A DNA stretch of 64,000 bases, taken from the NCBI GenBank assembly GCA_004297395.1, contig SCUO01000100.1, positions 80,418-144,417 on the forward strand, given 5' to 3'. This stretch comes from Chloroflexota bacterium. Lineage in GTDB: Bacteria > Chloroflexota > Limnocylindria > Limnocylindrales > CSP1-4. A model generated the notes under the pieces. That model searched no databases. It was not told where the DNA came from and saw nothing but the letters and a program-made list of their open reading frames with translations. The stretch's first letter is position 1, and each line of letters begins with the position of its first letter. The position numbers and the translations under genes are program-made. Of the stretch, positions 26,572 through 29,459 are shown piece after piece.

Positions 26572-27501
26572 CTACGGACGGAGCGTGGAGCCCATCGGGA
26601 TGCCGTCGACGAGGTAGATCCCGGTCGGGCCGCTGACGTCGATGTCGTACGTCCACGCGCCGTCGTACGCGACGAGGTCCGCGGAAGTCACGACCGACCC
26701 GTCGACGGCATCGCCCGCCCGGACATCGGCGAGGCGGCGCCCGTCGGCCAGGGGATGGCCCGGCGACGCCGTGACCGTCCGCCTGTCGGCAAGCACGAGG
26801 CGGACGACGCGGTGGCCGACCGGGGCCGTCGCTGACCCCACCGCGATCACCGTGCCGCGGACGCGGCGCCCCGCCTCGTCGAGCGTCCAGACGAGGTCGC
26901 CGACTCGAAGCCCCTCGACCGCGCGCGACCCATCGGGGGCATCGATGCGTGTCCCGCGAGCGAGGCAGATCGGGCACATCGGCTCGCCGGCCGCGGCCTG
27001 CTGCTCGACGCTGACCTGGCCCGTCGCCGAGATCGTGCCGGCGGTCCGGATGCCCTCGGCCGCCCCGGCCCGCGGCTGGGCCAGGTAGTCGAAGCCCCAG
27101 GCGTCGTCGCCGATCGGGTCGAGGGCGATGGCGTTGAGGACCTTCCAGGTTCGATAGACATCGAGCCTGGCGTTGTCGTCGAGGTCGCCGTCGGGATCGA
27201 GGCCGAGCCGCGCGGTGATCGCCTCGAACGCCTCGCGGTCGGCGACGACCTCGGGCCAGCGCTCGCGGGCCGCCTCGATCTCGTCCTGGCGCTGGATCGG
27301 GTAGAAGTCGGGATCGCAGTACCAGAGCGGCCCCAGGCGGTCGATGAGCGCGACCTTGCGCTCGGCCGGCGTCAGGGCGGGACCCGGCGTCGGGCCGGGC
27401 GTCGCGCTGGGGCCGGGCGTCGTCGACGGCGCTGCGCCGCCGGCGCAGGCCGCGAGGACGAGTGCGACCAATCCGGCAAGGAGGACCCGGCGGGGCTTCA
27501 T
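26572..27501 (-). CDS. lipoprotein with a C-terminal Hint (Hedgehog/intein) domain
   Basis: Lipobox LAAC after a hydrophobic stretch and a Pro/Thr linker. The Hint starts CLARGTRI (Cys codon 26965-26967), with VEGLRVGD.V, TASPGHP and TYDIDV....IYLVDGIPMGS. Confidence 0.85.
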   Translation of the reverse strand: MKPRRVLLAGLVALVLAACAGGAAPSTTPGPSATPGPTPGPALTPAERKVALIDRLGPLWYCDPDFYPIQRQDEIEAARERWPEVVADREAFEAITARLGLDPDGDLDDNARLDVYRTWKVLNAIALDPIGDDAWGFDYLAQPRAGAAEGIRTAGTISATGQVSVEQQAAAGEPMCPICLARGTRIDAPDGSRAVEGLRVGDLVWTLDEAGRRVRGTVIAVGSATAPVGHRVVRLVLADRRTVTASPGHPLADGRRLADVRAGDAVDGSVVTSADLVAYDGAWTYDIDVSGPTGIYLVDGIPMGSTLRP

Positions 27502-27565
27502 GACCGGCTGACGCGGCCGCCGAGGGGTCGGTTCCGCGGCCGCTGCTCGAACCGGCACCGGCCGG

Positions 27566-28549: not shown

Positions 28550-28658
28550 GGGACGGTGAGGATAGCGCCGATCGGGGCCGCCGGCGACGGCCGGGGCCGC
28601 GCGACCCGGCGACGGAGTCGGCGACGCGGGTGAGCTCAGCCGCTACCATCGCCGGGCG

Positions 28659-29459
28659 ATGTCCGACCAGCTCTCGCTGCGGCTCGAGCCGGCGCTCCCG
28701 AACCCGCCGACCTCGCTGCGCCCGATGCTGGCCCGGCCCCTCCCCGAGCCGTTCGATTCCGCCGACCATCTCTTCGAGCCGGCGTGGGGCGGCCGGCGAG
28801 CCCTGGCCGTCATCGGCCCGGCGGAGATGCCCGGTGGCGGCGATGTCACGTTCCTCGACGAGCGAGGTGAGGAGCTGCCGCTCGTGCCGCCCGAGCTCGC
28901 CGGCCTCGGCGTCCGGGTCGCGGCCCGCTCGGCAGTCCTCGACGGCGAGCTGGTGGTCGTGGATGCGAGCGGCCGCGCCGACCCGGTCGAGCTCGCCCGT
29001 CGACTGGCGGGTGAGCCTGGCCGGCCCGTCGCGTTCCTGGCCTTCGACCTCCTGGACCTCGACGGCCGGCCCCTCCTGTCGCAGCCGTTGGAGCGCCGGC
29101 GCGACCTGCTGCGTCGCGTGCTGCGTCCGGGCGACGAGGTCCTCGCCGTGCCGGCGATCCCCGGGGAGGGGCGGGCGCTGTTCGCCGCCGTCGCCGCGCA
29201 GGGCCTGGCCGGGATCCTCGCCCGCCAGCGCTCGAGCCCCTACCTGCCCGGAACCCGGAGCCGCCTCTGGCGGTTCATCCCGGTCGCCGGCCGGGTCGCC
29301 GCCGGGGCCGACGGCGCCCCTGGGGCAGGCGCGACCGGCACCGATGGCGCCGAAGGCGTGGGCGGCGCGGTGGGCGACGGGGGCGTCGCCGGGAGCGCGC
29401 CAGTCCTTGCCCTCATCCGCCGCCTGCCGCTCGGGCTCGACGAGCCGGTCGAGGGCTGA
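28659..29459 (+). CDS. ATP-dependent DNA ligase adenylation-domain homolog with degenerate catalytic motifs
   Basis: PMLA, LDGELV, AFDLL.LDG, PLERRR.LL and SPY.PG.RS.LW are retained, but motif I reads EPAWGG instead of E.KWDG. Confidence 0.75.
   Translation: MSDQLSLRLEPALPNPPTSLRPMLARPLPEPFDSADHLFEPAWGGRRALAVIGPAEMPGGGDVTFLDERGEELPLVPPELAGLGVRVAARSAVLDGELVVVDASGRADPVELARRLAGEPGRPVAFLAFDLLDLDGRPLLSQPLERRRDLLRRVLRPGDEVLAVPAIPGEGRALFAAVAAQGLAGILARQRSSPYLPGTRSRLWRFIPVAGRVAAGADGAPGAGATGTDGAEGVGGAVGDGGVAGSAPVLALIRRLPLGLDEPVEG

Follow-up and report, generated by a model that had tools for sequence, protein, structure and literature searches.

What does the adenylation domain of a DNA ligase do once the residues that carry out ligation are gone? 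An intact gene in the window, the whole 64,000-nucleotide stretch of DNA from a Chloroflexota bacterium of the class Limnocylindria that we analysed, raises this question. The open reading frame lies on the forward strand (28659–29459), as do all features described for it below, and encodes a protein of 266 residues, not one of them lysine, that is largely made up of an adenylation domain of the LigD ligase type from which the catalytic residues are missing. We refer to it as psiLig.

Profile searches and structure prediction placed the protein in the ligase superfamily. Pfam matched the adenylation domain PF01068 only (E = 2.3e-13), with no match to the OB domain PF04679, and psiLig scored below the cut-offs of both TIGR02779 (94.4 against 227.75 bits) and NF007210 (96.5 against 989 bits). 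Its best relative of solved structure by HMMER was the LIG domain of Mycobacterium tuberculosis LigD (Rv0938; 1vs0, E = 7e-18; also 6nhx and 6nhz). A first AlphaFold model built from close homologues only had a pLDDT of 59 and a poor C-terminal half, and was replaced by one made from an 88-row alignment that included canonical ligases, with a mean pLDDT of 85.7 and values above 90 across residues 11–210. The top Foldseek matches of this model were again 6nhx, 1vs0 and 6nhz (best E = 3.5e-15, range 1e-14 to 1e-15; r.m.s.d. 2.1–2.8 Å over ~195 columns at 31% identity), followed by archaeal and human ATP-dependent ligases, and a match of this quality to the LigD domain means that the likeness to a ligase is not due to chance. 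AlphaFold, Foldseek and PF01068 delimit a nucleotidyltransferase (adenylation) fold at residues 21–208 (28719–29282).

Within this fold, the first-pass annotation of the DNA had called motifs I, IV and V degenerate, and alignment to 1vs0 by HMMER indeed set non-catalytic residues at each site. In motif I (28773–28799), FEPAWGGRR stands against FEGKWDGYR; its first codons, TTC GAG CCG GCG TGG GGC GGC, were located at 28773–28793. The Lys is replaced by Ala42 and the Asp by Gly44, and E40, G45 and R47 are kept. Motif IV (GLAGILAR, 29202–29225; AGILARQR against EGVIAKRR) has Ala184 for the Glu and Arg189 for the Lys. Motif V (LWRFIP, 29265–29282; WRFIP against WVKDK) has lost both lysines (Phe206 and Pro208), with W204 kept and R205 specific to the family. 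In active ligases, the motif I Asp and the motif IV Glu are metal ligands. The segments described as retained were all present in the reading frame: motif III (LDGELVV, 28938–28958; D95 invariant, E97 in 120 of 124 family members), motif IIIa (FLAFDLL, 29034–29054; F129 and D130), PMLA and SPYLPGTRS. As had also been proposed, a linker and a short tail take the place of the OB domain. The linker (residues 209–246, 29283–29396) is a low-complexity stretch rich in Gly, Ala and Asp that is predicted to be disordered, with no secondary structure and a pLDDT of 39–55 in the AlphaFold model, and its length and sequence vary so much that orthologues cannot be aligned across it.

Read from its sequence, psiLig is missing the Lys that accepts AMP, the acidic residues of motifs I (Asp) and IV (Glu), the lysines that bind phosphate, and the entire OB domain. 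The absence of Lys extends to the entire protein; at a genomic Lys frequency of 1.7%, the probability of finding none in 266 residues is ~0.01. Among 124 full-length family members, 53 are free of Lys and no alignment column holds it in more than 19% of sequences. A lysyl-AMP intermediate is therefore impossible in the window protein, and we rejected the idea of a relocated Lys nucleophile. By descent, psiLig is a form of the LIG domain of LigD, the end-joining enzyme, and its sequence predicts a catalytically dead protein that neither adenylylates itself nor seals nicks.

We next asked how widely these losses are shared. A protein search over 5.8 billion sequences returned 2,369 matches, the best 120 of which were 220–322 residues long, 53–93% identical to psiLig (most 66–86%) and, where named, assigned to metagenome-assembled genomes (MAGs) of Chloroflexota or Ca. 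Limnocylindrales. In an HMMER scan of 1.84 billion representatives, the family reached down to ~48% identity before canonical ligases appeared. We collected 270 proteins, of which 124 were the full-length members mentioned above, and compared the family with 67 canonical ligases. None of the 124 has Lys at the motif I position (Ser in 45, Ala in 41, Val in 20 and Ile in 5). Against the canonical residues, psiLig proteins have S/A/V/I for K at position 42 and G for D at position 44 (motif I), A/P for E at 184 and R for K at 189 (motif IV), and F for K at 206 and P/A/E for K at 208 (motif V). E40, G45, R47, D95, E97, F129, D130, Y195 and W204 are conserved as in the canonical ligases; all but G45 are non-catalytic residues that line the adenine and ribose pocket.

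The gene is under purifying selection. By the Nei–Gojobori method (NG86), 14 orthologous genes gave a dN/dS of 0.25 for the whole gene, 0.19 for the domain and 0.03–0.04 for the C-terminal tail, and the N-terminal residues 1–20 were not below the gene average (0.25). The reading frame was intact in every orthologue that we read. In-frame stops flagged in some rows of the genome search are probably natural stop codons, with the profile reading past a short C terminus, because the open frames equal the length of the gene. The window's genus carries psiLig in 25 of 25 genomes, as a core gene. The first-pass annotation had proposed a repurposed, non-catalytic protein rather than a decaying pseudogene, and had named orthologues that keep KxDG as what would speak against this; no full-length member, close or distant, keeps it, and the loss of Lys throughout the clade at a low dN/dS, including 0.19 in the domain, is what its homologue comparison had been meant to look for.

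All genomes that we compared are MAGs. In a sample of the class, close members were confined to the window's GTDB family (35 of its 45 genomes sampled), and a larger sample of that family had psiLig in 45 of 71 genomes; none of the 16 genomes sampled from a sister family within the order, all of them small, had it. The gene is present in a single copy in the family sample except in one genome with two matches, one of them at a contig end. Two of the collected proteins have an unusual structure. P0160, a metagenome protein of 246 residues, has an intact Lig1-type motif I (EDKYDGIR) in its N-terminal half, and its C-terminal half, tail included, is that of psiLig; it is either an assembly chimaera or a natural recombinant. 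In P0105, a stretch of ~45 residues that spans motif III is directly duplicated within the protein, which may reflect a tandem duplication or an artefact of assembly.

Both ends of psiLig carry short conserved peptides. At the N terminus, residues 4–9 (QLSLRL, 28668–28685) fit QLxLxL, the hexapeptide form of the motif that binds the β sliding clamp, for which the consensus is QL[SD]LF or QLxLxL (PMC3836487). In 50 sequences, Q4 and L5 never vary, D3, S6, L7, R8 and L9 are conserved in at least 90%, and the form QLxLx[LFV] is kept in divergent relatives and in relatives encoded next to Ku. Escherichia coli Hda has the N-terminal clamp motif QLSLPL, and Caulobacter HdaA has QFKLPL at the same position, residues 4–9; in both, as in psiLig, the protein is small and its body is related, in degenerate form, to an enzyme or ATPase (PMC3836487). 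Hda differs in being an AAA+ relative of DnaA without a ligase fold, and for psiLig we infer clamp binding. Clamp-like peptides occur in the same genome in DinB (QLELF) and in an ImuB-like protein (QLPLF), and we found none of this type in its Ku and LigD. Judged by these resemblances, QLSLRL probably binds the β sliding clamp.

At the other end, the Gly/Ala-rich linker is followed by the conserved peptide APVLALIRRLPLGLD. The tail as a whole (A247-PVLALIRRLPLGL-D261, 29397–29441) is, by the dN/dS given above, the most constrained part of the gene, with V249, A251, R255, L256, P257 and L258 invariant. Even divergent members (~40% identity) keep both peptides, as in RQLPLAL...LVALLRLPLE, and the tail also ends the relatives encoded next to Ku. 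AlphaFold predicts a short helix at residues 248–254, with a pLDDT of only 55–69 for both terminal peptides. MAFFT aligned the 15-residue tail with the motif VI segment LRHPxFxGLRxD of canonical ligases, setting IRRLPLG-LDEP against the end of their OB domain (LLRFPLFGTLRPD and RLRHPSFKGLRPD); by this alignment, the tail may be a relic of motif VI that has outlived the rest of the OB domain.

In the window, psiLig appears to be transcribed on its own. A promoter-like block upstream consists of GCGACG (28621–28626), a 17-nucleotide spacer and TACCAT (28644–28649), which ends 9 nucleotides before the ATG. Across 14 orthologous upstream regions, the block CTACCATCG (28642–28650) and the ATG are invariant and the flanks diverge, so that the start codon is well supported. 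There is no Shine–Dalgarno sequence upstream of the ATG and the mRNA is therefore probably leaderless, with TACCAT probably acting as a −10-like element. A scan of the locus for a generic sigma-70 consensus and for terminators gave no call, so that the promoter assignment draws solely on conservation. The CTACCATCG block recurs in at least six other places in the genome, 5–9 nucleotides before an ATG or GTG (start codons judged by eye), in front of several unrelated genes; it is absent upstream of Ku. We therefore rejected it as a signal of a specific regulon: in this genome it precedes start codons generally, which suggests that a TACCAT −10 element is common, and leaderless mRNAs widespread, in the organism. 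No SOS box (GAAC-N4-GTTC) was seen by eye in the conserved region upstream of psiLig, and PADLOC reported no match to a defence system.

The gene is alone on its strand in the window and in orthologues. One side is taken by deoC, with or without a gene for an S9 peptidase, and the other by a convergent pair of ABC-transporter genes; the window gene adjoins no repair gene, and these neighbours give no hint of its function. In the window, nothing but 109 bp (28550–28658) separates deoC from psiLig, and the two are transcribed divergently. Loci from other genera (L007:3776–5923 and L009:3786–5843) have a gene for a Tricorn/S9-family peptidase of ~700 residues between the two, which was either lost in the window lineage or inserted in the other genera. 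Next to deoC is a gene, syntenic across genera, for a 328-residue protein (26572–27558, reverse strand) whose N terminus carries a lipoprotein-like signal (LLAGLVALVLAACAGG) and whose C terminus has a Hint/intein-like domain; the orthologue at L007 has a weak match to PF13403 (Hint_2).

Relatives of psiLig were far more informative in their genomic positions. Genera of the family that lack the window-type gene have another short, Lys-less gene without an OB domain, which is marked by the motif I FEPWWPGxR. It has the same termini (N-terminal QLxLx[LFV] and C-terminal ...[RQE]RL[PG]L) and is flanked by Ku and LigD or comes right after Ku. With one genome scanned per species, 214 genomes carried this type, almost all of them under the label Chloroflexota or Limnocylindria, and we fetched 80 loci. 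Ku lies directly upstream on the same strand in 72 of the 80, most exceptions being contig ends, and LigD directly downstream in 29. Four Lys-less relatives that retain an OB domain also lie directly after Ku and/or beside LigD, and P0261, a Lys-less protein of 326 residues with no recorded OB-domain match that fell in the psiLig clade in a quick tree only, follows Ku. The suggestion of the first-pass annotation that Ku and LigD might be partners thus gained strong support from genomic context. In another family of the class, a Ku–psiLig pair (locus L046, G043:C2:545000–556000) lies near a Lig1-type three-domain ligase, a helix–turn–helix regulator with a WYL/WCX domain and a CYTH-domain protein. 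WYL regulators are tied to DNA-damage responses in other bacteria, and the one at this locus is possibly a regulator of Ku–psiLig.

How the two short types are related was addressed with a maximum-likelihood tree. The window type grouped as a clade, with support of 94/99. The short type encoded next to Ku was a separate long branch of unsettled position that was not united with it, and the OB-bearing, Ku-linked Lys-less proteins fell in other groups. A single clade of all short psiLig proteins was not rejected by the AU test (p = 0.20). Both short types have the N-terminal motif and the tail, lack the OB domain, and carry Arg for the motif IV Lys and Pro at the second Lys of motif V; these shared derived characters argue for, but do not prove, one origin followed by relocation. 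Loss of Lys in LigD-like proteins as such probably happened more than once. The window genome also holds a second Lys-less family that consists of a ligase domain only (G000 contig C112:4425–5351, L005:1177–2103), with proteins of ~231 residues, a motif III of DGYLxPAP, the ending ...IP[KR]R and no OB domain. Its motif I, WEPLWGGxR with Leu for Lys, was present in 88 of the 120 homologues read out of 867. Some of these homologues are on contigs whose lengths (2,566,589 and 2,980,564 bases) equal those of contigs that encode psiLig homologues. The neighbours of this paralogue, an MFS transporter gene and genes of no assigned function, are uninformative.

Because its closest relatives sit directly behind Ku, psiLig is probably a non-enzymatic helper in break repair. 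We favour the reading that it is a non-catalytic accessory or regulator of end joining by Ku and LigD that has become a leaderless transcription unit of its own, and put the probability of this at roughly 0.55. Under such a mechanism, psiLig would contact either DNA, at an end or a nick, or a partner protein through its folded body, and the two terminal peptides, on flexible tethers, would dock it onto partners: QLSLRL would most likely enter the hydrophobic cleft of the β sliding clamp, and LIRRLPLGL would attach to Ku, to LigD or to a second cleft of the clamp. The gene order in the ancestor would have been Ku–psiLig–(LigD); in the window lineage, psiLig would have moved between deoC and the ABC transporter and acquired its own promoter, with Ku and LigD staying adjacent. 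Its effect on end joining could be positive or negative.

The window genome also has a canonical Ku–LigD operon on another contig (C41), to which psiLig is unlinked and which encodes a LigD of 923 residues in the order PE-LIG-POL, and two further intact ATP-dependent ligases, one LigC-like and one Lig1-like. psiLig is therefore an extra protein and not a replacement. This separation from Ku and LigD, together with the separate promoter, is also where the main rival reading starts: a clamp-linked or nucleotide-sensing role unrelated to non-homologous end joining (NHEJ), with the Ku adjacency of the relatives reflecting ancestry and not present function. psiLig might then be a clamp-tethered sensor of nicks or 5′ phosphates in replication or excision repair, or might sense nucleotides through its adenine pocket, and both the clamp-type N-terminal motif and the retained adenine and ribose pocket residues would suit it. 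The distribution of the gene bears on this from both sides. Among 71 genomes of the family, the unlinked type occurs in 45 and the Ku-adjacent type in 13, with no genome carrying both, a mutual exclusion across 58 genomes that is expected of functional equivalents and speaks against separate roles. psiLig of either type is present in 56 of 60 Ku-positive genomes compared with four or five of 11 Ku-negative ones, in MAGs that are ~90% complete (Fisher's exact test, p ≤ 5e-4, a statistic that ignores shared ancestry). Two Ku-negative genomes (90–92% complete) keep psiLig, as a role outside NHEJ would allow, and in two others psiLig is at a contig start where Ku may have been cut off; against such a role, six genomes without Ku, four of them also without a LigD-like match, have no psiLig, and the Ku-adjacent type already possesses both terminal peptides. 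We consider a function outside end joining a serious but clearly less probable explanation than an accessory or regulatory role in it.

It is improbable that psiLig is a cryptic enzyme that works without lysyl-AMP, by sealing or removing AppDNA ends or by transferring nucleotides with another nucleophile. The conserved ribose and adenine contacts E97, F129 and R47 would fit such an activity, and Lys-to-Ala mutants of some ligases keep step 3 on AppDNA; one study of this kind reportedly concerns a mutant RNA ligase (PMC3514331). However, steps 2 and 3 need the Asp of motif I, the Glu of motif IV and the two lysines of motif V, all of which are gone, as is the OB domain, and the protein has no Lys at all. 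The remaining explanation, that the gene is a pseudogene in decay or an active ligase gene garbled by an error of sequencing or assembly, has nothing beyond the missing catalytic residues in its favour and is refuted by the comparison of orthologues, with the reading frame intact here and in hundreds of independent assemblies, identical substitutions throughout the clade, a dN/dS well below 1 and separate intact genes for LigD, a LigC-like and a Lig1-like ligase in the same genome, so that we regard it as extremely unlikely.

Comparison with known systems helps to place a putative accessory of end joining that has a ligase fold. psiLig is a pseudoenzyme branch of the LigD LIG domain (1VS0, 6NHX, 6NHZ; TIGR02779), with which it shares the fold, motifs III and IIIa, SPYxPGxRS and, through its relatives, a place in Ku/LigD operons. 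Unlike that domain, it has neither the catalytic residues of motif I (Lys and Asp), motif IV (Glu and Lys) and motif V (both lysines) nor an OB domain, and it is a stand-alone protein with an added N-terminal QLxLxL and C-terminal RRLPL tail. LigC-type ATP-dependent ligases, of which the window genome has one (contig C10, a 404-residue frame), resemble it in being small, stand-alone, LigD-related members of the same superfamily (nucleotidyltransferase plus OB, ~350 residues). LigC enzymes are active ligases that keep all catalytic motifs and the OB domain, whereas psiLig has neither the full set of motifs nor that domain. The eukaryotic NHEJ scaffolds XRCC4, XLF and PAXX are non-enzymatic partners of Ku and ligase that dock through short terminal peptides. 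The analogy is one of function only and implies no homology: their folds are unrelated to that of psiLig, and bacterial Ku lacks the peptide-binding domains of its eukaryotic counterpart.

A full-text literature search returned no description of Lys-less or inactive LigD-like proteins, and the reviews of ligases and of NHEJ that we consulted are silent on them. In databases, psiLig proteins are named 'bifunctional NHEJ protein LigD' or 'ATP-dependent DNA ligase', and such labels inflate ligase counts in the annotation of metagenomes. As a pseudoenzyme that stems from the covalent nucleotidyltransferase fold, the family would be a rare case, and it is a natural experiment in what a ligase adenylation domain can do without its chemistry. 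Both teaching and models treat bacterial NHEJ as a minimal system of just two proteins (PMC7969030 and PMC6379672 are examples). If a dead paralogue of the ligase is maintained by selection, lies between Ku and LigD in many species and is equipped with a clamp-type docking peptide, it would be a candidate third component. We tentatively suggest, as a possibility that we would not yet bet on, that end joining in Limnocylindria and related Chloroflexota is a three-part system of Ku, LigD and psiLig, in which QLxLxL would link the repair complex to the β sliding clamp and the RRLPL tail would hold on to Ku or LigD, and that the window version may have left the operon and kept its function.
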